Position numbers and translations under genes: made by a program
Shown here: one piece after another, positions 12,104 to 29,033 of the stretch
How positions within the stretch are numbered: position 1 is the stretch's first letter
Layout of the letters: each line of letters begins with the position of its first letter
Origin: an archaeon
Lineage (GTDB): Archaea; Nanobdellota; Nanobdellia; Pacearchaeales; UBA284
Assembly (NCBI GenBank): GCA_020343435.1
Contig: CP070794.1
Coordinates: forward strand, 397,209-461,208
Reading direction: 5' to 3'
Length of the DNA: 64,000 bases
Notes under the pieces: model-generated
Told to the model about the DNA's origin: nothing
What the model saw: the letters and a program-made list of their open reading frames with translations, nothing else
Database searches by the model: none

Positions 12104-12149
12104 TGTTTAAAGAGAGTTTTTTCCTTTAAAAACCTTATGGTAATAAAAA

Positions 12150-13268: not shown

Positions 13269-13303
13269 AGTTAAAAGAAGAGAAAAGATTTTATAAAGGT
13301 TTC

Positions 13304-14344: not shown

Positions 14345-14802
14345 TAAATCAACATAACAACAACACCAACAATTTGAGAAAACCTTATTTTTTCATTAAA
14401 AAGACCATTGTCTCCTTTAACTTTGCAAAACCAACCTCCCTCATCTGTTCCTGTGTTAGTAACTCTATGAACAATAACTTTCTCTTCTTGATTAAATGCT
14501 ATAATGTCTCCAACTTTGATCTGGGAATAATGCATTGGTTTTATTTCTATACCATTTGTATCTTCATCTATCAAAGGATCCATACTATTAGTATTAGAAT
14601 AAGAAGTTAAAACAGCATTTTTCAAATTAATAATTACTCTATCCTCTTGAACCTCAATTTCATTACCCCTAATCCAGTTAGAAGGGCTTGGTTTTTCTCT
14701 AACAAAAGAAAAAAAGCCTTCATCTGCGTAAGCCATTGCAAATAAAAAAACCAAAACTACTGATAAAACCACACAGATTAAGATTGCTTTATCCATTGTC
14801 AC
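14341..14802 (-). CDS. Signal peptidase I, archaeal/ER (S26B) type
   Basis: N-terminal TM helix, Ser box NSMDPLI, His box VIVHRV, and a GDN box (VKGDNG). Confidence 0.7.
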   Translation of the reverse strand: MTMDKAILICVVLSVVLVFLFAMAYADEGFFSFVREKPSPSNWIRGNEIEVQEDRVIINLKNAVLTSYSNTNSMDPLIDEDTNGIEIKPMHYSQIKVGDIIAFNQEEKVIVHRVTNTGTDEGGWFCKVKGDNGLFNEKIRFSQIVGVVVMLIY

Positions 14803-14894
14803 TATAAGATTACTACACTTTAAAAGGATTATTGTAAAAAAAGATAATTAAAATGAGAAGCTTTAAATACTAAAAAATCCTATAAAAAAGATTG

Positions 14895-14958
14895 GAAAGA
14901 GGTGGAGGAATTGAGCTTTGGTCTTCGGATCTTTGTTTGACCTTGGACACCTTCTTTC
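14895..14958 (+). ncRNA. Candidate small structured RNA (unclassified)
   Basis: G+C-rich island in an AT-rich spacer. An outer stem GAAAGAGGTG/CACC(T)TCTTTC encloses GGTC-TTCG-GATC, whose G:U pair works only on the + strand. TATA-like TTTAAATA lies at 14862-14869, about 26 nt upstream. Confidence 0.25.
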
Positions 14959-14962
14959 TAAG

Positions 14963-16849
14963 TTATCTTATTCTTATGATGTCTAAATTTCTAGGTACAG
15001 AAGTCTCGACTTTATAGATCTTATAAAAACTTGAAGCAAGATCTAAGGATCTTGATGGTTCTCCATGATTTACTATAATTCTTCTAGGAGAAGGATTAAG
15101 ATTGTTTACAAAACCTAATAATTCTTTTCTTCCTGCATGAGCTGAAAAACTATCAATAGATTTAACCTCTAATTTAATTGGAACAATTTCATCTTTTTCA
15201 CCTTCAAAAGTTAATTCTTTTACTCCTTCCTGGATCTGTCTTCCTAAAGATCCATGTCCTTGATAAGATACTATGATTAAAGAATTATTTTTATTATCTG
15301 CTAGATTTTTTAGATATTCTACAGATGCTCCTCCAACAAGCATACCAGATGTTGCTAAAATAATGCAAGGTCCTCCTTCAATAACTTCTTGTCTTTCTTT
15401 AGCTGAACCCACATGATTAAATCTTTCTGATAAAAATGGATTTTTATCTTGAAATACTTGTGTTTTTAAGTAAGAGGATAAAAAATTGGGATAAGCTGTA
15501 TGAATGGCGGTTATATCCCAAACCATCCCATCAATATAAACAGGAACATTTTTCTTGATCCTTCCTTCTTTTATTGCTGCATCAATAACCATCATAATTT
15601 CCTGTGCTCTCCCAACCCCAAGAACAGGAACAAGTGCTTTTCCTTTTCTTTCTAACGTCTTATTAATTGTATCTATTAAAATATCCTCTGTTTCTTTTCT
15701 TGACATAAAAATATTTTGTTTTCCACCATAAGTACTTTCACAAATTAAAGTTTCTAATCTTGGGAATTTGTTTGCTGCTAAATCTAAAACTCTTGATCTA
15801 GCAAATTTGAAATCTGCTGTATAAAGTAAATTATGTAAACCATTTCCAATATTGAGATGAATCATAGAACTTCCTAAACAATGACCAGCATTGTATAAAG
15901 TTAATCTTACATCTGGAGTGATATCTGTAACAACATTAAAATCTAAGGCAATAGAATGTTTAATCATTGTTTTTACATCTGCTATCTTGAATAAAGGGGA
16001 TTCTGCTTTTTTGTAACTAACCCCTATAAAGTCTAGAGCTAGTAAAGCTGCAATATCTCTTGTTGGGGCAGTCATATAACATGGACCTTTATATCCTAAT
16101 TTGTAAAGATAAGGAACTAAACCAGAATGATCAAGATGAGCATGAGAGATAATTATTGCATCTAATTCTTTAATATCAAACTCTGGAACATTTAGAATGG
16201 GGAATTTATCAGAATTACTTGCTGCAATATCTATTCCACAATCTAATAAGATTTTAGATTCAGGTGTTTGTAATAATAAACAAGATCTTCCAACTTGTCT
16301 TCCCCCTCCTAAAAATCCTAATCTAACCCATTCATCTTTTTTTTCTGGGGACCATTCAGTGTAAATCTGTTTACCAATAGAATTTAAGAATTTTTTTCTA
16401 TAACTAACATTTTCAAATAAAGTATGTCTGATTGCTGTTGTAATCTTACTTTTAATTGCTGGGATTCTCATAATTGTTGGTGTCCAAAAAGTTTTTTCCT
16501 TGATTGTTTTTAGAATTTCTCCACCCTTCCCTATAGCTAATCCTGGTTTTTTAACTTCAACTACAACAGAACTTCTCGCATCATCAAATAAGATATTGTC
16601 AACTTCAGCTTCTTTTGGGATTAGTTTATTAATCTCTTTCTTAGTCTCTTCTTCACTTAATAGAATTTCTTTTGAAGCTCTTAATTCAACTCTTTTTTTT
16701 AGTTTATTTACTAATCCTCTTATCTTTTCATCAGATTTTAGAAAAAAGGATTTGTCTCCAGTATATAAAACTATATTGGCTCCTTCAAAGGTTGCTGAGC
16801 TAACTACTTTCGGTAATTCATCCAGAATTACTTTTAAAATGTCGGGCAT
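14963..16849 (-). CDS. aCPSF1/FttA: KH-domain beta-CASP metallo-beta-lactamase ribonuclease
   Basis: N-terminal KH-like region (GLAIGKGGEILKTIKEKT), the HxHxDH motif (ISHAHLDHSG), and a 628-aa length typical of aCPSF1. Confidence 0.9.
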   Translation of the reverse strand: MPDILKVILDELPKVVSSATFEGANIVLYTGDKSFFLKSDEKIRGLVNKLKKRVELRASKEILLSEEETKKEINKLIPKEAEVDNILFDDARSSVVVEVKKPGLAIGKGGEILKTIKEKTFWTPTIMRIPAIKSKITTAIRHTLFENVSYRKKFLNSIGKQIYTEWSPEKKDEWVRLGFLGGGRQVGRSCLLLQTPESKILLDCGIDIAASNSDKFPILNVPEFDIKELDAIIISHAHLDHSGLVPYLYKLGYKGPCYMTAPTRDIAALLALDFIGVSYKKAESPLFKIADVKTMIKHSIALDFNVVTDITPDVRLTLYNAGHCLGSSMIHLNIGNGLHNLLYTADFKFARSRVLDLAANKFPRLETLICESTYGGKQNIFMSRKETEDILIDTINKTLERKGKALVPVLGVGRAQEIMMVIDAAIKEGRIKKNVPVYIDGMVWDITAIHTAYPNFLSSYLKTQVFQDKNPFLSERFNHVGSAKERQEVIEGGPCIILATSGMLVGGASVEYLKNLADNKNNSLIIVSYQGHGSLGRQIQEGVKELTFEGEKDEIVPIKLEVKSIDSFSAHAGRKELLGFVNNLNPSPRRIIVNHGEPSRSLDLASSFYKIYKVETSVPRNLDIIRIR

Positions 16850-16867
16850 TTTTAAAAGAATTTAATT

Positions 16868-17530
16868 TTATAATGTTTTCTTTACTAAAACTTCTTTAAC
16901 TTCTTCTGAAAGGACTTTTCTTGCTCCTTTTTCATCTATTACAACAACGTCAATTCCTGATCCTGAACATGTATCTCTTTTCATAGCTGCACTTATTGCT
17001 CTAACTGCTAATCTGATTCCTTCTTTTGTTGTTAAACCTTCTTTATATGAGTCTTCTAAAACTCCAAAAGCCATTACACTTCCAGAACCATCTGAAGCAT
17101 AATTTTTACGTTCTACCAAACATCCGTCTGGTGAAACTTCGTAAAGCCAGAATCCTTTTTTGTCTTTTCCCCCAACTAAAAAGGCGGTAATTGCCATTAA
17201 AGGACTAAATTTTCTTATATTTTCATATGAGATCATAGTTAGGAGACTTGATATTTCTTTTACTGTTGGTTCTTTTTTAGTTCTTATTTTCTTAAGTCTT
17301 AATTCTGCTTTTACCATTTTTATGACTAATTGGATATCTGATACATTTCCAGCTATAGTTACTGCGATGTTGTCTGTTATTGGGAATACTTTTTCAACAT
17401 CTCTACTAGAAATGATTGGAGGATACCCTGCTGTAGCTCTTTTATCTGCAGCTAGAACTACCCCGTCTTTACATACCAATCCGAGAGTTGTAGTTCCGGA
17501 TTTAATAACCTTTTCATCAATGGGTTCCAT
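16868..17530 (-). CDS. psmB: Proteasome subunit beta
   Basis: Propeptide followed by the catalytic TTTLGLVCKDGVVLAADKRAT. Confidence 0.9.
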   Translation of the reverse strand: MEPIDEKVIKSGTTTLGLVCKDGVVLAADKRATAGYPPIISSRDVEKVFPITDNIAVTIAGNVSDIQLVIKMVKAELRLKKIRTKKEPTVKEISSLLTMISYENIRKFSPLMAITAFLVGGKDKKGFWLYEVSPDGCLVERKNYASDGSGSVMAFGVLEDSYKEGLTTKEGIRLAVRAISAAMKRDTCSGSGIDVVVIDEKGARKVLSEEVKEVLVKKTL

Positions 17531-17587
17531 TTTAGAAACTCTTTTTAATGGGTGGTTTGAAAAGTTTTTAAATGTTTCTGTGGGGGA

Positions 17588-18469
17588 TTAAGGTGAGATA
17601 TATTGACTACAACTAAAAGTTGAAGGATCTGAATAAGTTTTAATTACCACACCTGCTTTTATTGGAAAAGCTACATGAGTGCCTCTTGTTGTTTTATAGG
17701 GCCTATCCCCTAGATAGCCCCCTAAACCAGCATAAGTTGTGGGAAGGTCTTCTCTAAACTTTCCTAATCTTGTTCCCCAGGAGGGATCTATTTCAAAGTT
17801 ACATACTCCATCACAATAAGAGAAGACATTACTATCTTGGTCTGCTCTCCAAGAAAAAAATTGTTTATTTTGTATGGTTGAATCCTCTTTGAATATCCTT
17901 GTATCTACGCTCGCAGTCATTACAACTGGAGGATCATTGGTTCTTATAGGAACCAACATTTCTTTTTCATTATATCTTTTCCAATCTTTTAATTCCCATG
18001 TCATGTCTGCTGCGTTTCCAAGAATTGGTTCTGCCATTCCAGATTTAGACTCCCAATTATAACCATGGTAACGCTCTATAGAATCTGTTAATGCTAAGGT
18101 TAAAGTGCTTCTATACTTTACATTATCTTCTTTTGTTTTGGTTTCAATGTATAGCTTACCAGGTAAGGTATCCAAACAATAGTTATGATCTAATATTAAT
18201 CTACTTGGTTCAAGAGCTTGTATTCCAGTAGCATGAGGATTTACTGGTCTGATTATTGGCTCCTTTTCTAACCCCTTATTAATATCTACAATATATGTAG
18301 ATTCATTACCTAACCAAGAGGTTCCTCCGCTTCTCCCTGGTTCTCTGTATACTTCTCTAGTGCAATCAAAAGGTTCTGGTTCTGAAACTTTAGATTGTGG
18401 ATCTCTTTTACAACATAAAGGAGCTGTTAGAAGTGCTAATGCTAATATTGTTACAAGGGTTCTTCCCAT
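17588..18469 (-). CDS. Orphan secreted/lipoprotein-like protein
   Basis: The signal MGRTLVTILALALLTAPLCC is followed by a 270-aa domain with no recognisable motif. G+C is visibly higher than in flanking genes. Confidence 0.45.
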   Translation of the reverse strand: MGRTLVTILALALLTAPLCCKRDPQSKVSEPEPFDCTREVYREPGRSGGTSWLGNESTYIVDINKGLEKEPIIRPVNPHATGIQALEPSRLILDHNYCLDTLPGKLYIETKTKEDNVKYRSTLTLALTDSIERYHGYNWESKSGMAEPILGNAADMTWELKDWKRYNEKEMLVPIRTNDPPVVMTASVDTRIFKEDSTIQNKQFFSWRADQDSNVFSYCDGVCNFEIDPSWGTRLGKFREDLPTTYAGLGGYLGDRPYKTTRGTHVAFPIKAGVVIKTYSDPSTFSCSQYISP

Positions 18470-18522
18470 GTTTTTTATAAGATACTCTAACTTTTAACTT
18501 TTTCTAGAATAAAATAGATAAA

Positions 18523-18645
18523 TCCCAGCGGCCGGACTCGAACCGGCATCCTCACGGGTTCTGCCGCGCGTAAGCGAACGCATGCTCGAGCCTTACGCAT
18601 AAGCATAGGCTACAGCCGTGCGCTCCACCGTTGAGCTACACTGGG
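18523..18645 (-). tRNA. tRNA-Tyr (GTA) with a 51-nt intron at the canonical 37/38 position
   Basis: Reverse complement: acceptor CCCAGTG/CGCTGGG with C1:G72, anticodon stem CACGG/CCGTG, loop CTGTAG|intron|C, T arm GCCGG-TTCGAGT-CCGGC. Confidence 0.85.
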
Positions 18646-18678
18646 ATAGAAATACTAAGAATTTGTATTTTTAAAGGT

Positions 18679-19956
18679 TTATGGAAGAAGTCTTTCAGTA
18701 TCTCTTGGAGAGAAAGTTGCTTCTCTAACATTTCCTAATCCCAACATTTGGGTTATAACCCTTGTTGGGCTTAACCCAAAACCAGCGTGTTTTGGACAGC
18801 CATATTTGAAAAAGTCAACATAAAATTGTAAAGGTTTTAAGTTAAGTTTCATTTCTTTAGCTTGTTTTTGTAATATCTCTGCTCTGTGCTCTCTTTGAGA
18901 TCCTGTTGTGATTTCAACACCATTATAAATTAGATCAAAACTCATTGTTAGTTTTGGTGATTCTCTCATATGGTAAAATGGCCTTTCTGAAATAGGATAA
19001 TGGGTGACAAAAACAAAATCATGTTTGTATTTTTTCTTAACATACTCTCCTAATTTCTTTTCTGCAGAAGTGTCTAATCTTTTTGTTTTTATAGCTTTCA
19101 AAGCATCTTGATACTTAATTCTTGGAAAAGGAGTTTTAGGAATTGTTATTTTTATTCCAAAAACTTTTTCTATTTGTTGCCCATATTTCTTTTTTACTTG
19201 TTCTAATGAATATTTTATCCATCTTTCTTTAAAATCCATTAATTCTTTCCAATCTATCCAAGATATTTCAACATCTAAGGAAGTGTATTCTGTATCATGT
19301 CTTGTTGTGTGGGAAGGATTTGCTCTAAATACTGGAGCAATTTCAAAAACTTTTTCAAAACCTGCAGCCATAGCCATTTGTTTGTAGATTTGTGGGGATT
19401 GAGCTAAGTAAGCTTTTTTATTGAAATAAGGAACTTCAAATAATTCTGCTGCCCCTTCTGAAGGAATTCCCATAAGTTTTGGAGAGTGTAATTCTATTAA
19501 CCCCTCTTTTATGAAAAATTCTCTTGTTGCTCTTTCAAATTCTGTAGAAACTCTGAATATTAAGAGATGTTTTGGTTTTCTTAGATCTAAAAAACGCCAG
19601 TCTAATCTTTTGGATAAGTCTGTTTTAATACTTTTATCTTTTTCATTAACTAAAATGGGTAGTTTTGCAGCTTTGTTTAATAAGGTTATACCTTTTATTT
19701 CAACTTCAACATTGCTTCTTGCTTCTTCATGTTTTACTTTAGCTTCTTTTGCTTTTCCTTTGATTTCAACAACTGATTCTAAACTTAGATCTGAGAATTT
19801 TTTGAATAATTTTGAATCTTTAATAAAACACTGAACTACTCCAGTTACATCTCTTAATAATAAGAATTTGATTTTAGCTAGATCTCTTAATTCATGTACA
19901 AAACCTTGTAAAAATACTTCTCCTCTTTTGATATCTTGGATATAAGTTCTTTTCAT
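18679..19956 (-). CDS. aspS: Aspartyl-tRNA synthetase (archaeal class IIb)
   Basis: Motifs AYLAQSPQIYKQ, FRANPSHTTRH and GFGLSPTRV, with a C-terminal FSPRDTERLLP. Confidence 0.85.
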   Translation of the reverse strand: MKRTYIQDIKRGEVFLQGFVHELRDLAKIKFLLLRDVTGVVQCFIKDSKLFKKFSDLSLESVVEIKGKAKEAKVKHEEARSNVEVEIKGITLLNKAAKLPILVNEKDKSIKTDLSKRLDWRFLDLRKPKHLLIFRVSTEFERATREFFIKEGLIELHSPKLMGIPSEGAAELFEVPYFNKKAYLAQSPQIYKQMAMAAGFEKVFEIAPVFRANPSHTTRHDTEYTSLDVEISWIDWKELMDFKERWIKYSLEQVKKKYGQQIEKVFGIKITIPKTPFPRIKYQDALKAIKTKRLDTSAEKKLGEYVKKKYKHDFVFVTHYPISERPFYHMRESPKLTMSFDLIYNGVEITTGSQREHRAEILQKQAKEMKLNLKPLQFYVDFFKYGCPKHAGFGLSPTRVITQMLGLGNVREATFSPRDTERLLP

Positions 19957-19964
19957 AGTCTTAA

Positions 19965-21392
19965 TTATTTAGTATACTTTTTAAGGATTTCTGAAGCCTC
20001 AGCAGGATTGACTTTTCCTTTGAAATGTTTCATTACCAAGCCCATGTATGCATTTAAGGATAATCCTGGTTTTGAAGCAACTATTTCTTGAACAAAGGCT
20101 TCTAAATCTCTTGGATCTATTGATTCTGTTTTTAATGCTTGTTCTATTGATTTACCTTTTATTATTTCTAACATTAGTTGTTTAGCTTGAGATTCTTGTA
20201 TTTCTTTTTTCCTGGTTTTTTCTAATAGAGATTCTAAGATATCTAAGGGTAATTTTTTTTCAATTTCTTGTATCTTGATTTTTTCATGGCTTGCTATTTC
20301 TTTTGGCCATAGTATTAAGAATTTGACTACAAGATCTGGTTTATTGTATGCTTTTAGTAAAGATTTGAATTCTTGTAATTTTCTTTCTTTTAATATTAAT
20401 TTGATCATTTCAGGATTCATCCCTTTTTCTTTTAATTCTAATTTTATTGTTTCGTGTAATTTTGGAATGTTTTTCTTTGCTTCATCAACATAAGATTTTG
20501 TATAGATCAAAGGCACATCTGTTTCAGGATACATTCTTGCTGATCCTGGTAGTGGTCTTAAGAAACTTGTTGTTCCATCTTCATTTGCTTTTCTAACTTC
20601 TGGTTTCCCCTCTTTTGATTTTGCTTGTCTTTTTGCTTCATATTCTAAAACTTTTTCAAATAGATATGGTTCTTGAACTCCTTTTATTTCAACTCTTGGA
20701 TGTTTTGGAGTACTGATGTTTAGATCTTGTCTTATTGTTCCAATTCCTCTTTTAACTTTACAAGCTCTGAGAATTTCTCCGATTTTTAATGCAGCTATTT
20801 TAGCTTCTTTTGGTGTTGTGATATCTGGTTTGGTTACAATCTCAACTAAAGGAATTCCCAATCTATCTAATCTGAAGGTTACAGAACTCTTATCTCTTCT
20901 TATTTCTCTTGCAGCATCCTCTTCTAATGTTATTGATTGAATTCCTATTTTTTTCTTTTTTCCTTCTAATTCTATTTCAAAGAATCCATCTTCTGCAACT
21001 AATGCTGTTCTTTGAAAGCCTGATACGCATGATCCGTTTATGATTGTTTTTCTCATAACTTGAACTGCTGGAAAAATTCTTGATTTGAATATTAAAGCTA
21101 ATTGTAATGCTATTATCAAAGCATCTTTATTTATTTCATGTGGGGGTTCTTCATCCAATTCTACTAAGCAGCTAACGTCTTTGTAAAATTCGTAAATGAA
21201 AGTTTTATCTTTTAGTTCCTCGTGATAAGCTGCTACATCTACTTTTCCAGACTCTCCTGCTACTGCTTTTATTTTTCTTCTTATTACTTTATCTGGTTTA
21301 TCTTGTTTTAAGATAGAAGGACATGAACAGAATAACTTATTTGTATCTAACTGTTGATGTATTTCTATACCTGCTTTTATTTTTTCAGACAT
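19965..21392 (-). CDS. Asp/Glu-tRNA amidotransferase subunit of the GatB/GatE family
   Basis: N-terminal AGIEIHQQLDTNKLFCSCPS and a C-terminal YqeY-like tail (YMGLVMKHFKGKVNPAEASEILKKY). The 475-aa length matches GatB. Confidence 0.8.
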   Translation of the reverse strand: MSEKIKAGIEIHQQLDTNKLFCSCPSILKQDKPDKVIRRKIKAVAGESGKVDVAAYHEELKDKTFIYEFYKDVSCLVELDEEPPHEINKDALIIALQLALIFKSRIFPAVQVMRKTIINGSCVSGFQRTALVAEDGFFEIELEGKKKKIGIQSITLEEDAAREIRRDKSSVTFRLDRLGIPLVEIVTKPDITTPKEAKIAALKIGEILRACKVKRGIGTIRQDLNISTPKHPRVEIKGVQEPYLFEKVLEYEAKRQAKSKEGKPEVRKANEDGTTSFLRPLPGSARMYPETDVPLIYTKSYVDEAKKNIPKLHETIKLELKEKGMNPEMIKLILKERKLQEFKSLLKAYNKPDLVVKFLILWPKEIASHEKIKIQEIEKKLPLDILESLLEKTRKKEIQESQAKQLMLEIIKGKSIEQALKTESIDPRDLEAFVQEIVASKPGLSLNAYMGLVMKHFKGKVNPAEASEILKKYTK

Positions 21393-21422
21393 GTATAAGA
21401 AAAAGGATTCTAATTAATAAAT

Positions 21423-21782
21423 TTAACCACTTAATCTATAACTCTCTGCTTTCCCCTTATTTGCAACTGCTACAGCAATAGGAACACAATAAGAGCCTCC
21501 TGAAAGATCCATAACAACCACTTTTTCGGGAATGTCTGGACCAAAATTAAGAACATATCCTCTCCTAGAAACATGATCTTTTGCACCTAATGGGATATGG
21601 GGGGTTGAATGATCAATCGGGCCAAGTTCTCTTTCTAAACTTAAAAGTGCAGATTCTGGAGCAAACTCTCTTGTGGTTCTTGGTTCAAGGGTTGTTAATA
21701 CTCCATGAAACCATTCCTCTAGGGCATCTTGTCTAGCTCCAATTTTTGCATTTCTTGATCTAACGACTGTTTCATCCTTCAT
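21423..21782 (-). CDS. Hypothetical protein (orphan)
   Basis: 119-aa ORF with elevated G+C, lying just outside the left end of the integrated element. Confidence 0.4.
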   Translation of the reverse strand: MKDETVVRSRNAKIGARQDALEEWFHGVLTTLEPRTTREFAPESALLSLERELGPIDHSTPHIPLGAKDHVSRRGYVLNFGPDIPEKVVVMDLSGGSYCVPIAVAVANKGKAESYRLSG

Positions 21783-21842: not shown

Positions 21843-21854
21843 ATGCTCCCGCCG
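21843..21854 (+). repeat. Distal att-like direct repeat (copy of the tRNA-Glu 3' end)
   Basis: ATGCTCCCGCCG is identical to 28960-28971. It is a G+C-rich 12-mer inside a 276-nt AT-rich non-coding spacer. Confidence 0.65.
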
Positions 21855-21870
21855 TAAGCGGAACAAGAAT

Positions 21871-21881
21871 GACAGTGCTCT
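21871..21881 (+). repeat. Left inverted repeat just inside the element end
   Basis: GACAGTGCTCT is the exact reverse complement of 28937-28947. Confidence 0.6.
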
Positions 21882-22058
21882 CACTGTTTAATTTTTATTA
21901 TGTCTGTTACGACTATTTATCGAGGAGATTGAACTTTATATATTTTATGTTTTTGTATAAGAAAAAAGATTTTTTCAACATAGAAAAGATTATAAAGGCT
22001 TAAATTATTAGTTTTTTGGGGTGGTGGTCACCAGAAACCTTATTCTGAGATTAACAAA

Positions 22059-22367
22059 ATGACCTGGTTTACAAAACAATTAAGTGATGGAAGATTTTTT
22101 CATGCTGGAAGAGTCTATAGAGAAATCCCACTTCCAAAAGAAGATTCTTTACCAGAAGAGTATAGAGGCAAAATTGTAGATGTTATGTATGGCTCTATCA
22201 CTGGAACTGAAAGAGAGCATTCTGGAGGCACTCAAGCAATGATTGTTGAATCAGAAGGAATGGAAAGATTGGTTTTTGAAAAAGGAAAATGGAATGGTGT
22301 TGATCCTAACCTTAAACCAGTGTTTACTATTGCCGATAGAATAGCTAATGAAGCTGGCGGTTTCTAA
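22059..22367 (+). CDS. Hypothetical protein (element cargo)
   Basis: 102-aa ORF with elevated G+C and no recognisable motif. Confidence 0.45.
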   Translation: MTWFTKQLSDGRFFHAGRVYREIPLPKEDSLPEEYRGKIVDVMYGSITGTEREHSGGTQAMIVESEGMERLVFEKGKWNGVDPNLKPVFTIADRIANEAGGF

Positions 22368-22438
22368 TTTTCAATTTCATTATATCTATTTGCATTATAT
22401 TAAAGACAAGCTAAGAAATAGTAAATTCTAAATAATAT

Positions 22439-24046
22439 TTATTGTTTTTTGTTTTTTTCTGGATCATAGTTAATTATTTTAAAAACAAAAGCCCCATTAG
22501 CATGAGAGATATCCGCTACATTATAATCCCCCGATATTAAAACACATCCATTATTTTTTGAAATCATATCATACAATTTTTTGTCAGCATCAAAAGGATC
22601 TGTTATCTCATAATCTTTTGTTGTTATCTTTATTTTTCCTGATTGTTGAAACATCTTTAATTTTTCTAATTCTTTTTGTGCACCTCTTTTCTGAGATAAT
22701 CGAATTGTTTCAATTTCATCCAAAATTTTAAATGGTTGAATTACACAACAACCCTCAAATATTGGTTTTTCTGAATTAAAATCTTTACTTAATATGCCTG
22801 CAACATAGGCGTTGGTATCACATATGATGTGGGTAAATTTTTTTCTTAAACAATCCTTTTCTATTATCTTATTACATTTAGAACAATGATAATTAATCTT
22901 TTTCTTTTGTGGATTATAATATATAAGGATTTTGCTTATTTCTTCTTTGCAGTTGGGACATAAGAATTTTAGTTCTATTTGTTTTTTTGGATATCTTTGT
23001 TCTATTTCTTTAACATTACTCCATTTTTTTCTTACAAAATCTGGGAACTCTAAAGAAGGGTGTGATTTTCTGAAGACCCTTAACCATTTTCCGGTTATGT
23101 CATTACTTGCCCCCTTTCCAAAACTAATACTTTTTTTATTATCATATAATGTATTTAATCTATTTAATTCTTCCATTTTTGAAAGTCTTATTTGTCTTGC
23201 AACAATAGAGGCCAGCTTTACGGCAGTAACATTTTCATCCATTTTACTTTTACAAATAAATTCAATCTTATTTTTCTTCAAATTTTCCAAGTATTTTTGC
23301 AATTTATCTCTGATATTATAATTATCAATTACCAATAGAAAATTCTGATTTACAACATTTGAATATTTTCTTATAAGATTAATATATTTATTATCCATCA
23401 AACGATTTAAATTAAAAGGAAAATTAGTGATTTCTAAAGAAGAGATAATTTCATAATAATACTTTATTTTGTATTCTCGTAATAAACTACAATAATAATT
23501 TAATTCTTTTAAACTTAGGGTTTTTATATCTCTTTTTAAATCTTTAAATAGAAGTAGTTTGTCTTTAGGTAGCAATACCGAACCAAAAACCATCGGACCA
23601 ATACATTCTCCTTTTCCAGCTTCATCAAATCCGATAATGCATTCTTTCAATTCATATAATTTTGATTCATCAATTTCTATTGCTTTTGCCTTATCTCTTC
23701 TCTTAATAAATGTTAAATTAATTGAATTTTTTAAAAAAGAACTTATTTTCTCAAAAAAATCCCCTTCTTTTCCTTGTAATAGGCATTTCCCAGTACCATA
23801 AAAAATTAGATTTAGGGAATCCTTATTATTGGATAGTATTAATTTTAAGATTATATTTTGTTTTTCATCTTTACTTTCAACAATTATCCTAAATTTGTTT
23901 CTAATTAATTCTTTTATTTTCTTAATTTCACTTAGATTAAACTGGAATGTTTCTGAACTCATTTTGATTAACCAAGAATAAACATCAGCAGCACTGATGG
24001 CTTCATATCCTTCAGCAACCTCTGCGATTGAACCCTTGCGGGGCAT
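22439..24046 (-). CDS. RNase HIII-like domain / zinc ribbon / PIN-domain fusion protein
   Basis: An N-terminal RNase HIII-type segment (LIFYGTGKCLLQGKEG) is followed by a type-2 RNase H core (GFDEAGKGECIGPMVFG ... DENVTAVKLASIVAR). Then come CPNC..17 aa..CSKC and a PIN-like C-terminus (IICDTNAYV, LDEIE, DADKKL, ISGDYNVADISHANGAFV). Confidence 0.6.
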   Translation of the reverse strand: MPRKGSIAEVAEGYEAISAADVYSWLIKMSSETFQFNLSEIKKIKELIRNKFRIIVESKDEKQNIILKLILSNNKDSLNLIFYGTGKCLLQGKEGDFFEKISSFLKNSINLTFIKRRDKAKAIEIDESKLYELKECIIGFDEAGKGECIGPMVFGSVLLPKDKLLLFKDLKRDIKTLSLKELNYYCSLLREYKIKYYYEIISSLEITNFPFNLNRLMDNKYINLIRKYSNVVNQNFLLVIDNYNIRDKLQKYLENLKKNKIEFICKSKMDENVTAVKLASIVARQIRLSKMEELNRLNTLYDNKKSISFGKGASNDITGKWLRVFRKSHPSLEFPDFVRKKWSNVKEIEQRYPKKQIELKFLCPNCKEEISKILIYYNPQKKKINYHCSKCNKIIEKDCLRKKFTHIICDTNAYVAGILSKDFNSEKPIFEGCCVIQPFKILDEIETIRLSQKRGAQKELEKLKMFQQSGKIKITTKDYEITDPFDADKKLYDMISKNNGCVLISGDYNVADISHANGAFVFKIINYDPEKNKKQ

Positions 24047-24258
24047 CCGGCATATCTGCCATCATACCACACTGCTATTCTTATTAATATTCTTATTCTT
24101 TTAAATGTTTAGTTATTTAATTATCCAAATACTTTAATTAAATTTGAAAAGACAGATATAAATTCTTTTCTATTCTAAAAATTGTAACAAAAGAAATATA
24201 TTCAAAATATGCTGGCTTCTTCTGACTTTTTTATTAAAATTTAATAATATTTATATAT

Positions 24259-24615
24259 TTGAATCAACTTGTCTTCATTATGAAAAAACATGATTGGTTT
24301 GAAGATTTAAAAGGAACTATAAGAAAATTCAAGAATATTGACAATGCTATTGCATGCTTTAAGTTCAAATATGAAAGAGAAATGCAATTGCCACAATGGG
24401 TTTTAGGGATTGGTATTGCTATGCTTCTATCCTCAAATATTTCAAGTATCATTCAATCTAATTCAGATTTTTTAAAGATAACTGGAATAGTGGGATATGT
24501 TGTATCATTGGTTCTTTTTTTGGTTGGTATCATCTTGTTGATTGTTTTATCAAATCGCCAAAAAAAAGCTATGAGTTATTTATATTTAGAAAAAGATAAG
24601 AAAAATAAAAAATGA
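24259..24615 (+). CDS. Small membrane protein (element cargo)
   Basis: Two predicted TM helices. The probable true start is the ATG at 24280. The gene overlaps the next gene by 4 nt. Confidence 0.5.
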   Translation: MNQLVFIMKKHDWFEDLKGTIRKFKNIDNAIACFKFKYEREMQLPQWVLGIGIAMLLSSNISSIIQSNSDFLKITGIVGYVVSLVLFLVGIILLIVLSNRQKKAMSYLYLEKDKKNKK

Positions 24616-25325
24616 ACTTCAAAGAGATTAAGATAATAATTGGATTTGTAATACTTTTTCTCCTTCTATTTAGTATCCCAAGCATCTTCGCTTTCCGAGA
24701 CCCCCTCTTAGTAAAATTGATTAACAACAGCGAATGCAGAGATGCCCTTAATATTGCTTCAGAGAATGATATATTAGAAATAAGTCTTCCAAAAAATTTC
24801 AATTGCAAGGATGTAACAATTGAGATGAATTTTAGTGGAAATATATGTCGTTGTGATGGTCTTAGAGACAATTATTTTCATGATTCTGTTGGCGAAGAAA
24901 AATATAATTATACTAACAATCTTTATTTCTGTTTATTAACTTTTAAAAATGCATATGATAGTTGTTGTTGCCCCCATTATTCTGGGAAAAAAAATTGTAT
25001 AGAAACAGATTTGATCAATAATAAGTTTGACATAAAGATAGGTTATTCTGAGAGTTATGGTCAACCTTATTTGTTTAATAAAACTCTTAAAGTAATACAT
25101 CAAGAAGATTTGGAAAAAGAATGCAAAATCTGGAATTTCGAGAAAACTGGAATTAATGTTGGTATCCCTTTAATTATTATTTCTGGGATTTGTTCGATTA
25201 TTGGTTTTTATCTTTCTAAAAAAGGAAAGACACAAAAACTAAAAAAGATAGGTACAACAATGGCTATATTGGGAGTTATAATAACTATAATTTTAGCGGT
25301 ATTGAATAGATTTAAAATTTTGTAA
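24612..25325 (+). CDS. Cys-rich membrane-anchored exposed protein (element cargo)
   Basis: N-terminal signal/TM, a Cys-rich ectodomain with N-x-S/T sequons, and two C-terminal TM helices. Confidence 0.5.
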   Translation: MNFKEIKIIIGFVILFLLLFSIPSIFAFRDPLLVKLINNSECRDALNIASENDILEISLPKNFNCKDVTIEMNFSGNICRCDGLRDNYFHDSVGEEKYNYTNNLYFCLLTFKNAYDSCCCPHYSGKKNCIETDLINNKFDIKIGYSESYGQPYLFNKTLKVIHQEDLEKECKIWNFEKTGINVGIPLIIISGICSIIGFYLSKKGKTQKLKKIGTTMAILGVIITIILAVLNRFKIL

Positions 25326-25350
25326 ATTCTGACTTAGTCCACAAAAAACA

Positions 25351-25746
25351 TTATACTATTTTTTCTTTATAGGTTATGGAACTACAATTAGGACATTTTC
25401 TCAATTTATTTAAAGAATCTTGTAAAGCATTTTTATTGCGATTAGTTTGCATACCTGCACCAGCAGCAAGCCAACTTCCCGCTAACATACCAAAACCAGT
25501 AGCAACTTGATAAGATCTATTTTTCTTTAATTCTCTTTCAAGTTCCTTCTCTTTTAATACAGAAGAATACCAAACTTTCCCACAGCGATTGCATTTTCTT
25601 TTATATTCCTTATTATCAATTTTTTGTTTTTTGCCATACTGTTTCTTGCACTTAATACTGCAAAATCTTTTATCTTTGGTTCTATAAACTAAACCTGTCT
25701 TAAGATTTCCAAGTTTTTTATTGCAGTTCGGACAAAAAGATACCAT
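25351..25746 (-). CDS. Double zinc-ribbon protein with a central Gly-zipper hydrophobic segment (element cargo)
   Basis: CPNC..CSIKC, CNRCGKVW and CPNC motifs, plus GFGMLAGSWLAAGAGM in the middle. Confidence 0.5.
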   Translation of the reverse strand: MVSFCPNCNKKLGNLKTGLVYRTKDKRFCSIKCKKQYGKKQKIDNKEYKRKCNRCGKVWYSSVLKEKELERELKKNRSYQVATGFGMLAGSWLAAGAGMQTNRNKNALQDSLNKLRKCPNCSSITYKEKIV

Positions 25747-25748
25747 TG

Positions 25749-25813
25749 TATATTTTTGTAGATATGTAGTTTTATAGTAATGGCTTATATATAAAGATTT
25801 CTACAAAAATATA
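25749..25813. promoter_or_regulatory. Divergent promoter region bracketed by a 14-bp inverted repeat
   Basis: TATATTTTTGTAGA (25749-25762) and TCTACAAAAATATA (25800-25813) flank central TATA-like boxes between the zinc-ribbon gene and the RHH gene. Confidence 0.4.
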
Positions 25814-25821
25814 TCTCTACA

Positions 25822-25959
25822 ATGGCAAAACCAAAAAGACAAGTAAGTTTCTTTATTGAAACAGATTTATGGAAAAAGTTTTCTAAAAAATGTATAGATA
25901 AGGACAAGTCAAAGACAGAAGCTCTTGTAGAATTAATCAAAGGATTCTTAGGAGACTAA
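25822..25959 (+). CDS. Small ribbon-helix-helix (CopG-like) protein, 45 aa
   Basis: MAKPKRQVSFFIETDLWKKFSKKCIDKDKSKTEALVELIKGFLGD shows a beta-strand/helix/helix pattern. It is below the length cut-off of the ORF track. Confidence 0.45.
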   Translation: MAKPKRQVSFFIETDLWKKFSKKCIDKDKSKTEALVELIKGFLGD

Positions 25960-26225
25960 GCATAAGTATATACTCATGCAGAAAAAACTACTGTTGTATT
26001 ACCATTACAAAAGTCATAAGGAAGCAAATTCTATAACTTAAGGACTTTTGGCATGTTTCTATTAGTTTTTTGCTGAATAAATTTTTTTAGAAAATCTTAT
26101 AGAAATATGTTTAGTTTCCTATGGATTTTGTCTGTTTTTCTCGAAGCTTGGTAAAAATAATCTTGTCACTAAGTCTAATATTCTTCTTCATGGGGAGCTA
26201 AAAGGGTGGGTGCTCTGAGAGAGAG

Positions 26226-27113
26226 CTATACTTTATTTCCTATGTTCTTAGCTGTTTCTATATCTTGTTTTATTTCTGGTTCTTTGTTTAATGGCGCCGC
26301 CGAATCAAAAAGTTTTATTTCTTTCTCACGCAAAGAAATTATTTTTCTTATTTTATCTTTTGCGTTATACCCTTTTTCTTCCCATTCTGGGTATCCATAA
26401 CTCTGTTCTATCTTCTTATGCTTAATACCTAATTGAATACCTTTGGAAGCAATAACATCCTTTTGTAAAGCATATTCTTGCCAAGGACAAATAGCTACTT
26501 GTTCTGGAATACCTATTTTCAAACCAGGATATCCTATCTCTAATTCTGACTTAAGACTAAAGAATTTCTCATTGTTAATTTGTTCTATTGTAATCGGATC
26601 AAAACCAAATGTTCTAAAGTAAGCAATTAATTTACAACCATTCTTAGTTTTATGAAATTTAAAACTGCCGTCAGGCAAGAAGAAACGAAAAGCATATTTC
26701 CAGCCCCTTGGGCAATAACCAAGAAAGGACTTATCTTTCTCTAATTTCCTTATTAATTTATCTGGGAGATCATTTATTTTAGCTTCATATACAAAAGCAT
26801 GGCCAGATAGAACCAATGGTTTATTTTTTCCTAATTGATACCCTGTGATAAACCTTTCTATTTCTTTTTTTCTGTATGGATTAATTCCATAAAAGTTTAT
26901 TGAGTCTTTTAAAACAAAGATTAATCCTTTCTCTTCTAATCTTTTTATCGCCTTAGAGATGCCTCCAAAAGTGGATTTTGTTCTTCTAAGTAGTTCTTTT
27001 TGATTGAGCAAAGGTCCCTCTTTTACAAGATGGATTAAGATACTTACTTCTAAATGAGACAACGCGACTTTTTCCCAAGAAAATTTACTAATTTTCTTCA
27101 TCTTGTTTTTCAT
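26226..27113 (-). CDS. Winged-helix DNA-binding protein with a large C-terminal domain (element cargo; possible replication or regulatory protein)
   Basis: N-terminal wHTH (LIHLVKEGPLLNQKELLRRTKSTFGGISKAIKRLEEKGLI). The remainder is unrecognised. Confidence 0.55.
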   Translation of the reverse strand: MKNKMKKISKFSWEKVALSHLEVSILIHLVKEGPLLNQKELLRRTKSTFGGISKAIKRLEEKGLIFVLKDSINFYGINPYRKKEIERFITGYQLGKNKPLVLSGHAFVYEAKINDLPDKLIRKLEKDKSFLGYCPRGWKYAFRFFLPDGSFKFHKTKNGCKLIAYFRTFGFDPITIEQINNEKFFSLKSELEIGYPGLKIGIPEQVAICPWQEYALQKDVIASKGIQLGIKHKKIEQSYGYPEWEEKGYNAKDKIRKIISLREKEIKLFDSAAPLNKEPEIKQDIETAKNIGNKV

Positions 27114-27244
27114 TTTTTTTGTTCTCCGAGCTATTAATAAGATTTAATATTATCTCCTCCCACTGCTCTAAAGGTTGTTTTTGTTCCATTATACTTTCCA
27201 AGGAAAAAATATATAAGGACTTAGTGGTAAATTTTACTATAAAA

Positions 27245-27733
27245 ATGAAAATAAATAAAAAAGATTTCGAAGGGAAATTAATTCATCAAGATGAAGAAGG
27301 AATAACTTTTCTTAGTAGGTTTGAAAACAAGGGAAATGGTGTACTTGCACTAAATCTTTATGGATATACTAAATATAAACCGGATAATAATAGAATGACT
27401 TTAAAAACAACTGGGAGTCATCTTAGTCCAGAAAAAAACACTTTAATTCGAGCAAAGATCACAGAGAAAAAATTAACTGGTCTTTGGAATATATCTAATA
27501 AAATGAGACTTAGGGCCGTGGCTAAAGATAGACGATTCAAAGCAAATGAGCTTGCAGCAGTAACTATATTTTCAAATAAAAATGAAATTTCTGTAAAACC
27601 TGCAAATATCCAATTTGATGATCCAGAACCATCAAAAACATATGAAAGTCTCGGACCTTTTCCAGAAGATTGTGGATCTAATAAATCTTGCAATCATTTC
27701 AAGAAAAAAGTTTCTTCTTTAGAAGATCCATAA
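27245..27733 (+). CDS. Hypothetical protein (element cargo)
   Basis: In-frame ATG at 27245, preceded by an A/T-rich TATA-like stretch. The track ORF starts earlier at 27119 in what is probably non-coding sequence. The 3' end overlaps the integrase 3' end by 35 nt. Confidence 0.35.
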   Translation: MKINKKDFEGKLIHQDEEGITFLSRFENKGNGVLALNLYGYTKYKPDNNRMTLKTTGSHLSPEKNTLIRAKITEKKLTGLWNISNKMRLRAVAKDRRFKANELAAVTIFSNKNEISVKPANIQFDDPEPSKTYESLGPFPEDCGSNKSCNHFKKKVSSLEDP

Positions 27734-28874
27734 ACTCCTTATCTTTTACAAGATTATTCATTAGTTCATTTATTTTATTCCTCTCTAAATCTGCTTTAAC
27801 AATTTTATTAGCTTCTTCTTGATCTAAAATCATCCCACACATCTCACAAAAAAGGCTTGTGGGTTTATTTCTATGCTTACATCTCCCGCATTCTTTAATT
27901 TCAATTTTACTTTTTTCTTTTTTCTCTCTTTGTATTCCATTTAATTCTAAAATAGCATCATCAGTATCTCTTTGAGATAAATGAACATAAACAGCAGCCA
28001 TCTTGGAACCTTGTTTCCATCCCATTACTGATTTTAGTTGAGCGTCACTTAAATGTTTAGCAAGATAAGTTGCTCTGGCATGCCTAAAACTGTGAGGATT
28101 TACTCTTTTTCTAACCCCTGCTTTTTCTTTTGCATTCTTTAGAATATTTTTTATTCTCGCATAGGTTATCAAATTATTCTTTTGAGAAAGCCAAACAAAT
28201 GATTCAGGATTGTGATTATCTGGATGACCATCATTTATCCAATTCAAGAGATAACCTGAAGAAGAAATTAATCTAACATATCTGGAACCAGTTTTGCCAA
28301 AAACACTTATTTTTGCTCCAAATTCATCAAAAGAAACATTCTTTATTTTAATTGTTGCTAATTCTCCAATTCTACATCCAGATTCATATAAACAGGCAAT
28401 AAATGCTTTATCTCTACTCTTATTTGAGTTTTGTATTAACTTCAAGATATCTTCTTCATTTAGTAAATCTTCTGGTAGTCTTTGTTTGCCTGAATCGGCA
28501 GTAGTCTTAATCCATCTAACTTCTTCTGGGTAAATATCTTCCGCATTTCTTAACCACTTGTAGAATTTCTTTAATATTATCCTAAAACCCCTTTTAGTAT
28601 TGTAAGCATAATCTTTTTTCTCAATAACTGCTAAAACATGTTGTATATCCTCTTGATTGCATTTATCGAGGTCTCTAACAACAATCTCAGTAATTTTTCT
28701 TAAATCATAAAGATATCTTGCAATTTTAGCCTTTCCTATCCCATCTGCAATACAAGCATCTTGAAATTTCATTAAAATTTCTTTATTTTTCTTAGAAATA
28801 TCACTTTCTTTTATTCTTTTTATTGTTGCTTCTAATTTCTTTGCATAATGATGTATATCTATTGTTTGTTCCAT
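27699..28874 (-). CDS. Tyrosine recombinase/integrase with a C-terminal zinc ribbon
   Basis: Catalytic region with HSFRHARATYLAK and GWKQGSKMAAVYVHLS (R..HxxR..Y pattern). An extra CGRCKH..CEMCG follows. The gene is 86 nt from tRNA-Glu. Confidence 0.85.
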   Translation of the reverse strand: MEQTIDIHHYAKKLEATIKRIKESDISKKNKEILMKFQDACIADGIGKAKIARYLYDLRKITEIVVRDLDKCNQEDIQHVLAVIEKKDYAYNTKRGFRIILKKFYKWLRNAEDIYPEEVRWIKTTADSGKQRLPEDLLNEEDILKLIQNSNKSRDKAFIACLYESGCRIGELATIKIKNVSFDEFGAKISVFGKTGSRYVRLISSSGYLLNWINDGHPDNHNPESFVWLSQKNNLITYARIKNILKNAKEKAGVRKRVNPHSFRHARATYLAKHLSDAQLKSVMGWKQGSKMAAVYVHLSQRDTDDAILELNGIQREKKEKSKIEIKECGRCKHRNKPTSLFCEMCGMILDQEEANKIVKADLERNKINELMNNLVKDKEFMDLLKKKLFS

Positions 28875-28936
28875 ATTGCTCTTAATGAGCAGTGGTTTTA
28901 AACACCAGTGGTAACTTTTACCACAAACTACTCATA

Positions 28937-28947
28937 AGAGCACTGTC
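28937..28947 (+). repeat. Right inverted repeat just inside the element end
   Basis: AGAGCACTGTC is the reverse complement of 21871-21881. Confidence 0.6.
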
Positions 28948-28960
28948 GAATGTATATTCA

Positions 28961-29033
28961 TGCTCCCGCCGGGATTTGAACCCGGGTCACTGCCTCGAGA
29001 GGGCAGTATCCTTGGCCTCTAGACTACAGGAGC
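28961..29033 (-). tRNA. tRNA-Glu (CTC)
   Basis: Reverse complement: GCTCCTG..CGGGAGC-A, anticodon arm CTGCC-CTCTCGA-GGCAG, T arm CCGGG-TTCAAAT-CCCGG. Confidence 0.9.

Follow-up and report, generated by a model that had tools for sequence, protein, structure and literature searches.

The 64-kb stretch of archaeal DNA analyzed here (the window; positions 397,209 to 461,208 of contig CP070794.1) encodes a nuclease in which four modules are confirmed within one protein: a TBP-like N-domain, a type-2 RNase H core, a Cys4 zinc ribbon, and a PIN domain. Its gene lies inside a putative integrated element, directly behind a conserved RNA-like leader, and relatives recur beside restriction genes. Taking protein anatomy and genomic context together, we give about even credence to the view that this two-headed nuclease is a cargo of tRNA-integrating elements and defense islands of DPANN archaea and most likely functions in genetic conflict. 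An earlier reading of the same DNA, made from its letters alone (referred to here as the original prediction), had proposed an RNase HIII-like N-terminal domain, a type-2 RNase H core, a CPNC...CSKC zinc ribbon, and a PIN-like C-terminus, together forming an architecture carried on a mobile element and not previously described.

The open reading frame (ORF) exists as originally predicted (22439..24046, minus strand, 535 aa), and all of the peptide strings quoted for it are found in its translation, at residues 80-95 (LIFYGTGKCLLQGKEG), 139-155 (GFDEAGKGECIGPMVFG), 239-244 (VIDNYN), 269-284 (MDENVTAVKLASIVAR), 363-366 (CPNC), 388-391 (CSKC), 407-415 (IICDTNAYV), 442-446 (LDEIE), 486-491 (DADKKL), and 504-510 (ISGDYNV) in the 535-aa numbering, which we retain throughout. 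The start codon at 24046, however, is very probably wrong, judging from the homologous loci, because a conserved non-coding RNA motif, which in most of them is not in frame with the gene and which the original prediction had missed, overlaps codons 1-28. The coding sequence would instead run over 22439..23962 (minus strand, stop codon included), yielding 507 aa from M29. The N-termini of homologues read M[STGA]S[EQS]TF at the position equivalent to M29, and residues 1-26 score below 50 in predicted local distance difference test (pLDDT) in our AlphaFold2 (AF2) model.

That model, calculated from a 37-sequence alignment, reaches a mean pLDDT of 88.5, whereas an earlier six-sequence model was unusable for the PIN region (pLDDT 64; residues 478-535 below 50). 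The TBP-like N-domain spans residues 29-113 (23708..23962, minus strand; pLDDT 92-95) and was recognized by TIGR00716, Pfam RnlA_toxin, the family profile, and Foldseek. The TIGR00716 (rnhC, RNase HIII) alignment covers residues 37-318 and thus includes the N-domain (63.1 bits, below the equivalog cut-off of 161.2); the RnlA_toxin match is weak and covers residues 43-106. Foldseek against the PDB returned Bst RNase HIII (2d0a) as the top match, with 353 aligned columns across N-domain and core, and matched RnlA weakly. Judging from these matches, the N-domain is homologous to the substrate-binding N-domain of RNase HIII and to the N-terminal domain of RnlA, in keeping with what had been proposed for this segment.

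The core occupies residues 134-352 (22991..23647, minus strand), comprising the type-2 RNase H catalytic domain and an archaeal-type C-terminal helical subdomain. It carries the DEDD carboxylates D141, E142, D241, and D270, the motif D-E-x-G-K-G-E, and A313 in place of the junction tyrosine described below. Pfam RNase_HII matches residues 138-345 (E 3e-20; 73.4 bits versus a gathering score of 25.8), and TIGR00729, the archaeal RNase HII model, aligns over 137-350 (84.5 bits, below its equivalog cut-off of 123.3). The best matches in a sequence search of the PDB were archaeal RNase HII (1uax, E 2e-14) and mammalian RNase H2A, with RNase HIII chains weaker, and Foldseek superposed the core on the archaeal RNase HII structures 1uax, 1eke, and 1io2 with template modeling (TM) scores of 0.75-0.80. 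The original prediction of a type-2 RNase H is therefore upheld by profile, structure, and conserved carboxylates, although it made no remark that the core is overall nearer to archaeal RNase HII than to bacterial RNase HIII.

The zinc ribbon (residues 360-395; 22862..22969, minus strand), with C363, C366, C388, and C391, is modeled as a pair of beta-hairpins and draws weak matches to zinc-ribbon Pfam families; cysteine conservation and the modeled hairpins agree with the earlier assignment. The PIN domain, of the VapC group, spans residues 404-527 (22466..22837, minus strand) and holds the acidic residues D410, E444, D488, and D507 together with an invariant E459. The window protein itself has no match to a Pfam PIN family above the gathering score. 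Foldseek nevertheless matched its C-terminus, with probability 1.00, to the PIN domains of MJ1533 (3i8o, TMt 0.72), TTHA0540 (3ix7, 0.65), and AF0591 (1o4w, 0.62), and also matched the PIN domain of PINA (5f4h), so that fold, family profile, relatives' Pfam matches, and conserved acidic residues all speak for a PIN-like domain. A FEN-like reading of this domain was considered and is disfavored, all of its PIN relatives belonging to the VapC group.

A word-indexed search recovered five full-length relatives with 44-53% identity. When 1.84 billion representatives were searched exhaustively by hidden Markov model (HMM), using the C-terminal 181 residues, 64 proteins matched, in clusters of one to eight members; the family is rare. 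About 40 of the 64 appear to have the same fusion, because they are 480-530 aa long and match at about residues 325-500. Two members, P0039 (622 aa) and P0061 (651 aa), are longer and have extra N-terminal sequence. Full-length members (37 in the alignment, 17-53% identical, which underlie all conservation counts given here) matched the Pfam families RNase_HII (35 members), PIN_4 (10; best E 7e-5), PIN (3; best E 3e-6), PIN_9 (2), and PIN_10 (1), and over the N-domain RnlA_toxin (8) and DUF3378, the RNase HIII N-domain (3); one further matched a PCMT methyltransferase and one Fibrillarin. Against PDB sequences, the family profile scored 124 bits with 1uax and 101 and 86 bits with the RNase HIII chains 3vn5 and 4py5, the alignments to the latter two starting in the N-domain at position 9-10; among PIN structures it found MJ1533 (3i8o, E 1.7e-13), AF0591 (1o4w, 1e-5), and 3ix7 (2e-5).

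Both active sites are preserved across these relatives. The RNase H carboxylates are kept in 36 (D141), 35 (E142), 35 (D241), and 33 (D270, with Glu in two more) of the 37, the ribbon cysteines in 37 (C363, C366, and C391) or 34 (C388), and the PIN acidic residues in all 37 (D410, E444, and D488) or in 36 (D507). Loss of the acidic residues among homologues, named in the original prediction as what would overturn it, is thus not what we find, and both nuclease domains therefore appear, from their conservation, to be selected as active enzymes.

Close relatives, traced with the six-sequence alignment, occur in three GTDB genomes, of Pacearchaeota, Nanoarchaeota, and Woesearchaeota, and a scan of IMG/VR and metagenomes with the same alignment found no close relative. 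No homologue turned up in tblastn of 50,697 phage and 72,556 plasmid records either, and a BFVD fold search gave no viral protein of this architecture. PADLOC-DB 2.0 has no family match to the nuclease at E <= 0.01, and PADLOC and PHROGs together gave nothing for the nuclease or for element ORFs of unassigned family. The searchable literature holds no description of this architecture or of the RNA motif. One member bears the automatic IMG label 'ribonuclease HIII/rRNA-processing protein FCF1/DNA-directed RNA polymerase subunit'; aside from that, the literature, PADLOC, phage, and plasmid searches agree with the view that this is not a described architecture. Each of the domains is known, and RNase fusions in conflict systems are a known theme; it is their combination here that is undescribed in the searchable literature.

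The residues that surround the RNase H active site allow a prediction of what the core cleaves. The loop after strand 1 reads D141-E142-A-G144-K-G146-E147, with G144 kept in 36, G146 in 34, and E147 in 35 of the 37 relatives, while position 145 varies (K, A, T, or R). In Ta-RNase H3 from T. ammonificans, the corresponding motif is D78-E79-x-G81-K82-G83-E84, in which Glu84 binds two 2'-OH groups (PMC4132731), and the spacing of D-E-x-G-K-G-E in the nuclease is identical; in the type 3 motif, only the glycines are conserved (PMC4132731). RNase H2, for its part, uses a GRG-P loop and a tyrosine that stacks on the deoxyribose at the RNA-DNA junction; this tyrosine is absent in type 3 enzymes, which do not cut junctions because of its absence (PMC3025331). 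The tyrosine of GSGYPSD in P. horikoshii RNase HII aligns with A313, and this column is never Tyr in the 37 relatives, holding Ala, Pro, or Ser.

Family-wide, then, the marks of RNase HIII (GxG plus Glu, no junction Tyr) are present and those of RNase H2 (GRG(P) plus Tyr) are missing, and the enzyme is therefore predicted to cut stretches of RNA/DNA hybrid and not to carry out ribonucleotide excision. The residue pattern thus predicts a core that cleaves RNA/DNA hybrids and not single embedded ribonucleotides, and by analogy it resembles a naturally occurring form of the separation-of-function RNase H2 variant with P45D and a replaced tyrosine described in PMC4132731. The nearest non-fusion relatives are ordinary archaeal RNase HII proteins of 205-224 aa (29-33% identity), and the C-terminal helices (FPDFVRKKW...) are nearer to archaeal and eukaryal RNase HII than to bacterial RNase HIII. 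As far as sequence can tell, this is an RNase HIII architecture, with its specificity marks, on an archaeal RNase HII-like scaffold.

Upstream of the revised start lies a conserved structured RNA-like motif of ~93 nt (23984..24076, minus strand), found by covariation and a covariance model in the 5' leader of the nuclease gene and overlapping the mis-called codons 1-28 of the 535-aa ORF. The leader DNA alignment changes frame between loci, with indels that are not multiples of three, and the leader is better conserved than the nuclease protein. The stretch MPRKGSIAEVAEGYEAISAA, for example, shows 63-80% conservation, although the homologues encoded behind it share only 30-50% protein identity. 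This stretch was considered as a conserved N-terminal interaction motif and rejected, being out of frame in five of the homologous loci (L004, L006, L007, L009, and L014 in our numbering) with indels of lengths other than multiples of three.

RNAalifold predicts 23 pairs in the leader, 11 of them with compensatory change. In a MAFFT alignment of nine distinct sequences, 98.9% of cells are paired and seven pairs change on both sides; none of 500 shuffles reaches this pairing, and slid controls are 23-49% paired. In the predicted structure, covariation is found in the two outer stems, P1 and P2; two hairpins, CCCC-GNRA-GGG and CAAYC-GCUGA-GGUUG, and unpaired stretches of very high conservation make up the rest, and the inner pairings (P3) are tentative. 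T-rich tracts follow the leader in several loci and could serve as archaeal terminators.

With the covariance model, the motif was found directly upstream of the family gene in 12 distinct loci (the window and 11 others) and nowhere else convincingly. There are nine strong matches (88-110 bits). Beyond the window, the motif lies at L001 9971-10063, L002 9888-9982, L004 8906-9000, L006 9892-9984, L007 9898-9996, L009 1035-1124, L014 1939-2028, and L024 1979-2076 (minus strand). A diverged leader that abuts the start codon is present in L015 (8152-8225), L011 (8440-8534), and L026 (9897-9993), whose homologues are 30-33% identical, at 25-32 bits (E 1e-4 to 1e-6); in the subfamily of P0035 and P0041, no leader motif is detectable with this model. 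A DNA pattern scan with TTCRAYCGNNGAGGTTGCTGAA gave nine matches in the collection, of which that in L024 was new and again followed by the gene; six TTCRAYCGNNGAGGTTGCTGAA pattern matches without the rest of the motif were dismissed as chance. Rfam returned nothing for the leader at gathering thresholds (best E 0.54 and 2.4, to unrelated models). C/D-box and K-turn RNAs, hammerhead-like ribozymes, tRNA-like elements, and known riboswitches were weighed as identities and rejected, on the lack of an Rfam match and on manual inspection, which placed the motif off their consensus patterns. From its position and association, we read the motif as a cis-acting 5' leader of the nuclease gene.

The gene appears to be element-encoded, because an integrase beside a tRNA-Glu gene and repeats of the tRNA 3' end bracket it. 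A putative 7.1-kb integrated element (21855..28959) lies between two copies of the att-like direct repeat ATGCTCCCGCCG, a distal copy at 21843..21854 consisting of the last 11 nt of tRNA-Glu plus 1 nt, and a proximal copy at 28960..28971 overlapping the tRNA-Glu 3' end; this 12-nt sequence occurs exactly twice in 64 kb and not in any of 100 shuffles. The tRNA-Glu (CUC) gene at 28961..29033 (minus strand) is the probable integration target, and directly 3' of it lies a tyrosine recombinase (integrase) of 391 aa (27699..28874, minus strand; Pfam Phage_integrase E 7.7e-24, PHROG integrase E 1e-31). The element further encodes a winged helix-turn-helix/MarR-like protein of 295 aa (26226-27113, minus strand), a zinc-ribbon protein of 131 aa (25351-25746, minus strand), and four plus-strand ORFs without a family match (22059-22367, 24259-24615, 24612-25325, and 27119-27733). 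GC content is 27-28% at 22-26 kb and 31-33% in the flanks. Housekeeping genes lie outside the repeats: one flank encodes GatB, AspRS, a proteasome subunit, and FttA, and the other holds a tRNA cluster and the PheRS gene.

A second island is found in L002, from a Woesearchaeota metagenome-assembled genome, where a 37-nt direct repeat (89% identity) from the 3' end of tRNA-Ala(CGC), at 4526-4562 and 12483-12519, brackets 8 kb in which the homologue and its leader are accompanied by an integrase-like and a DpnI-like gene. The repeat recurs a third time, in part (TAGAGACGGCGGGTCCA), at 15056-15072, 2.6 kb past the second repeat, and the stretch between carries helix-turn-helix, ParE-like, and other small genes, which suggests two islands integrated in tandem. 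On these sequence features, the original claim of carriage on a mobile element holds: an att-bounded island carries the nuclease gene in the window and, independently, in L002. As to recurrence of the fusion beside integrases, within the loci examined we see the integrase-like gene of L002 and an integrase further on in L012.

Some other features of the window touch on its nature. An archaeal RNase P RNA at 55384-55672 (plus strand, 128 bits), together with FttA, a proteasome subunit, and the tRNA set, confirms that the window is archaeal chromosome, at about 31% GC. Just beyond the distal repeat, upstream of GatB, is a 119-aa ORF (21423-21782, minus strand) with no Pfam match at E <= 0.001. 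A 123-nt tRNA called by Rfam at 18523-18645 (minus strand; 53 bits) but absent from the ARAGORN calls is probably an archaeal tRNA with an intron, and a very large ORF of 1737 aa occupies 58048-63261 (minus strand).

The neighborhoods of homologues could be judged in 11 loci with enough flanking DNA, including the window. In 8 of these, a restriction or modification gene lies within 2 kb of the homologue; at a background of 10% per locus, at least 8 of 11 would be expected by chance with a probability of ~1e-6, which is a rough figure. The loci are not fully independent. The restriction-modification (R-M) genes are varied. In L001, DUF2779 and type I hsdM/S/R genes directly upstream precede the nuclease gene, which is followed by RNase H1; in L011, DUF2779 and type III Mod/Res directly upstream precede it; and in L012, the gene follows Cmr, CARF, Fic, and GmrSD, the last 10 nt upstream, with type I R-M genes and the integrase further on. 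L002 has a DpnI neighbor. In L004, the gene is followed by an 887-aa type IIG-like methyltransferase and a DDE transposase, L015 has an MmeI-like (type IIG-like) methyltransferase and a DDE transposase, and L024 has a methyltransferase-S fusion (type IIG-like), a PD-(D/E)XK nuclease, and a DDE transposase. L007 carries a PD-(D/E)XK nuclease, two methyltransferases, and Mrr upstream, and MCM, many small ORFs, and a reverse transcriptase downstream.

 The common outer genes of L001 (3233-11605) and L011 (2056-10066), namely DUF2779 and an RNase H/PIN gene ~31% identical between them, bracket different R-M systems, which looks like a cassette or hotspot with an exchanged R-M module. Directly downstream of the L007 homologue, 12082-21518 holds over 20 small ORFs together with genes for an MCM helicase, an RNA ligase, and a reverse transcriptase, and looks like an integrated archaeal plasmid or provirus. 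In L004, L015, and L024, homologous DDE transposases lie beside related type IIG-like methyltransferases, which may represent a recurring insertion sequence (IS)-associated defense cassette. No conserved synteny is seen across the 11 loci and no conserved protein partner among them, the proteins of the window element having no homologues in the other loci except for the integrase, in L002. In DPANN archaea, R-M systems are under-represented and compact single-gene systems enriched (PMC12988326).

From anatomy and context, we infer that the conflict role would be host or element defense against other invading DNA. In the mechanism we propose, the N-domain and H3-like core would bind extended RNA/DNA hybrids and cut their RNA strand, the targets being an invader's replication primers, R-loops, or transcription and replication intermediates. 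The tethered PIN domain could then cut adjoining single-stranded RNA or, more broadly, cellular RNA, so that the invader would lose priming or expression, or abortive shutdown would follow. The leader RNA might hold a potentially toxic enzyme under tight cis control, through autoregulatory binding or cleavage by the protein or through ligand sensing. By analogy, such a mechanism parallels those proposed for RnlA-family RNases and R-M-linked HEPN RNases (PMC3710099). A bolder version, in which leader and enzyme form a hitherto unrecognized, self-contained immune or inter-element exclusion module of DPANN, with a ligand-sensing or autoregulatory RNA switch controlling a nuclease that recognizes the RNA/DNA hybrids of invading replicons and destroys the associated RNA, we regard as possible and somewhat doubtful.

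Several observations weigh against a conflict role. Guilt by association cannot separate defense from anti-defense or element maintenance, and the nuclease is without a match to any PADLOC model. Three of the 11 loci (the window, L006, and L026) have no R-M gene near the homologue, and family and PADLOC scans recognize no restriction gene in the window element. The R-M-linked loci are partly dependent: the DUF2779 proteins of L001 and L011 are 52% identical, and L004 (13251-14483), L015 (6430-7662), L007 (39-1052), and L024 (6996-8027) share an IS-family DDE_Tnp_1 transposase with 35-47% identity. Replication genes also lie near some homologues, MCM in L004 and L007 and a DNA ligase and DHH protein in L006.

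One rival is a housekeeping replacement, in which the protein would be the host's own enlarged RNase H for genome maintenance and would lie near mobile DNA and R-M genes only because DPANN genomes are small and mosaic. The catalytic domain is indeed closest to canonical archaeal RNase HII (29-33% identity; 124 bits to 1uax), and L004 and L006 have housekeeping neighbors. No second RNase HII gene occurs in the window, although this is uninformative, the window being only ~10% of the 648-kb contig. We nonetheless find this reading very unlikely, given that the gene sits inside att-bounded islands in two genomes, lacks conserved synteny in the 11 loci, has replaced the junction tyrosine and GRG-P motif needed for ribonucleotide excision, and belongs to a family that is very rare for the number of DPANN genomes sampled, while RNase HII is near-universal and single-copy in archaea (PMC3914693). 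More serious, if still unlikely in our view, is a replication or maintenance enzyme of element or host, in which the RNase H would remove primers or resolve R-loops and the PIN domain trim the RNA or flap set free. Elements dependent on host polymerases would thereby have a compact nuclease for processing Okazaki fragments or origins. Carriage as cargo of small integrative elements is consistent with this, as are the position of the L007 gene directly before an MCM helicase gene and then many small ORFs typical of an archaeal plasmid or provirus, the genes for MCM, a RecJ-like protein, and DNA ligase that L004 and L006 have within 10 kb, and the adjacent RNase H1 gene in L001; nucleases of the PIN-like superfamily that remove primers are encoded by viruses, T4 among them (PMC5499597). 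The PIN domain groups, however, with VapC-type endoribonuclease PINs and not with FEN-type 5' nucleases, the window and L002 elements have no recognizable replication protein, and no homologue was found in phage or plasmid records, nor close relatives in IMG/VR. In compact DPANN genomes, moreover, a replication gene will fall within 10 kb fairly often by chance, whereas a restriction gene within 2 kb will not. Between the replication and conflict roles offered in the original prediction, the neighborhoods favor conflict or defense.

The leader raises a further alternative, an addiction module of toxin-antitoxin (TA) type that stabilizes the element or island carrying it, with the PIN domain or the whole enzyme as toxin and the leader as a cis-encoded RNA antitoxin or inhibitor, similar to type III systems. 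Such a module agrees with a structured RNA that precedes the gene in 12 distinct loci, shows more conservation than the protein, and is followed in several loci by T-rich tracts that are possible archaeal terminators. The lack of a protein partner also agrees with it, and PIN domains are the commonest TA toxins (PMC5499597). Yet the leader is single copy, whereas ToxI-type antitoxins form tandem repeats; in L011, L015, and L026 it runs up to the start codon, which fits a cis-acting 5' untranslated region better than a separate RNA; and it is undetectable in the P0035/P0041 subfamily. This reading also leaves a conserved, intact, hybrid-specific RNase H module unexplained, and we consider it distinctly unlikely.

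The nuclease is of interest in several respects. Few defense systems have been recognized in DPANN archaea, and little is understood of their mobile elements. A compact nuclease encoded by one gene, which is met repeatedly beside type I, IIG, IIM, III, and IV restriction genes and on tRNA-integrating elements, is a candidate new archaeal conflict system open to testing. As a probable natural counterpart of the engineered RNase H2 separation-of-function mutant (proline to acidic residue after GxG, junction Tyr lost), in which hybrid recognition is joined to a second RNase, the enzyme could help to study or detect RNA/DNA hybrids. Supported by covariation and strictly associated with the gene, the ~93-nt leader is a new candidate structured RNA. 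A derivation of RNase HIII from bacterial RNase HII has been argued (PMC3597702); on the bolder reading given above, the RNase HIII-type architecture would also exist on an archaeal RNase HII scaffold, which would go against that view and mean an origin in archaea or two separate origins.

Among known enzymes, bacterial RNase HIII (RnhC; Bst 2D0A, Aquifex 3VN5, T. ammonificans 4PY5) shares with the nuclease the order of TBP-like N-domain and type-2 core, the DExGxGE motif with its 2'-OH-reading Glu, and the lack of a junction tyrosine. The nuclease falls below the TIGR00716 cut-off (63 versus 161 bits), however, and its core and C-terminal helices are nearer to archaeal/eukaryal RNase HII; RNase HIII is a bacterial housekeeping gene, whereas the present gene is archaeal and mobile, and its product has a zinc ribbon and a PIN domain in addition. 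Archaeal RNase HII (P. horikoshii 1UAX, T. kodakarensis 1IO2, A. fulgidus 1I39) is the best overall match, over residues 137-352, with the same DEDD carboxylates and FPxxVRxxW C-terminal helices, but where RNase HII has GRG-P and the Tyr of GSGYPSD, the nuclease family has GxG-E and one of Ala, Pro, or Ser; RNase HII ends where the nuclease adds the zinc ribbon and PIN domain, and the nuclease has in addition a TBP-like N-domain and is not a conserved chromosomal gene.

The closest PIN domains are those of PINA/MJ1533 (3I8O, 5F4H), the PIN-TRAM proteins of COG4956 (3IX7), and Fcf1-like PIN_9 (AF0591, 1O4W), relatives that belong to the VapC group of canonical PIN endoribonucleases (PMC5499597). 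Their partners differ, with ATPase and KH domains in PINA and TRAM and transmembrane helices in COG4956, and none is fused to RNase H. Nob1 likewise combines a PIN domain with a zinc ribbon, although its ribbon lies after or inside the PIN domain and here precedes it. In VapBC type II TA systems, a small antitoxin gene directly precedes a stand-alone PIN toxin; the nuclease differs from these in that its PIN domain forms the C-terminus of a 507-aa enzyme with no conserved neighboring protein gene, and from type III systems, with their tandem antitoxin RNA repeats, in that the leader occurs once per locus.

The nearest conceptual parallels are found among conflict systems. RnlA/LsoA (RNase LS) and other 'two-headed RNases' (Anantharaman et al. 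2013, PMC3710099) fuse a TBP-like/RNase H-fold domain to a second RNase, and the nuclease has weak RnlA_toxin N-domain and fold matches and a similar defense-associated setting. The second nuclease of RnlA/LsoA is HEPN, whereas here it is a metal-dependent PIN domain, paired with a type-2 RNase H that is catalytically intact by its residues, in an archaeal protein without an RnlB-like protein antitoxin. The genes for PrrC/RloC-type RNases lie beside or inside varied R-M operons, where they are modeled as a second line of defense (PMC3710099), and in gene position alone the nuclease is similar, its gene lying directly downstream of HsdR, Res, or GmrSD genes in the same orientation; the PrrC/RloC domains (ABC ATPase and HEPN) are unrelated, and the nuclease gene is also found without R-M neighbors. 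In its mode of carriage, finally, the gene is akin to the cargo of tRNA-integrating islands, with a tyrosine integrase beside a tRNA gene and direct repeats of the tRNA 3' end that bracket the island.

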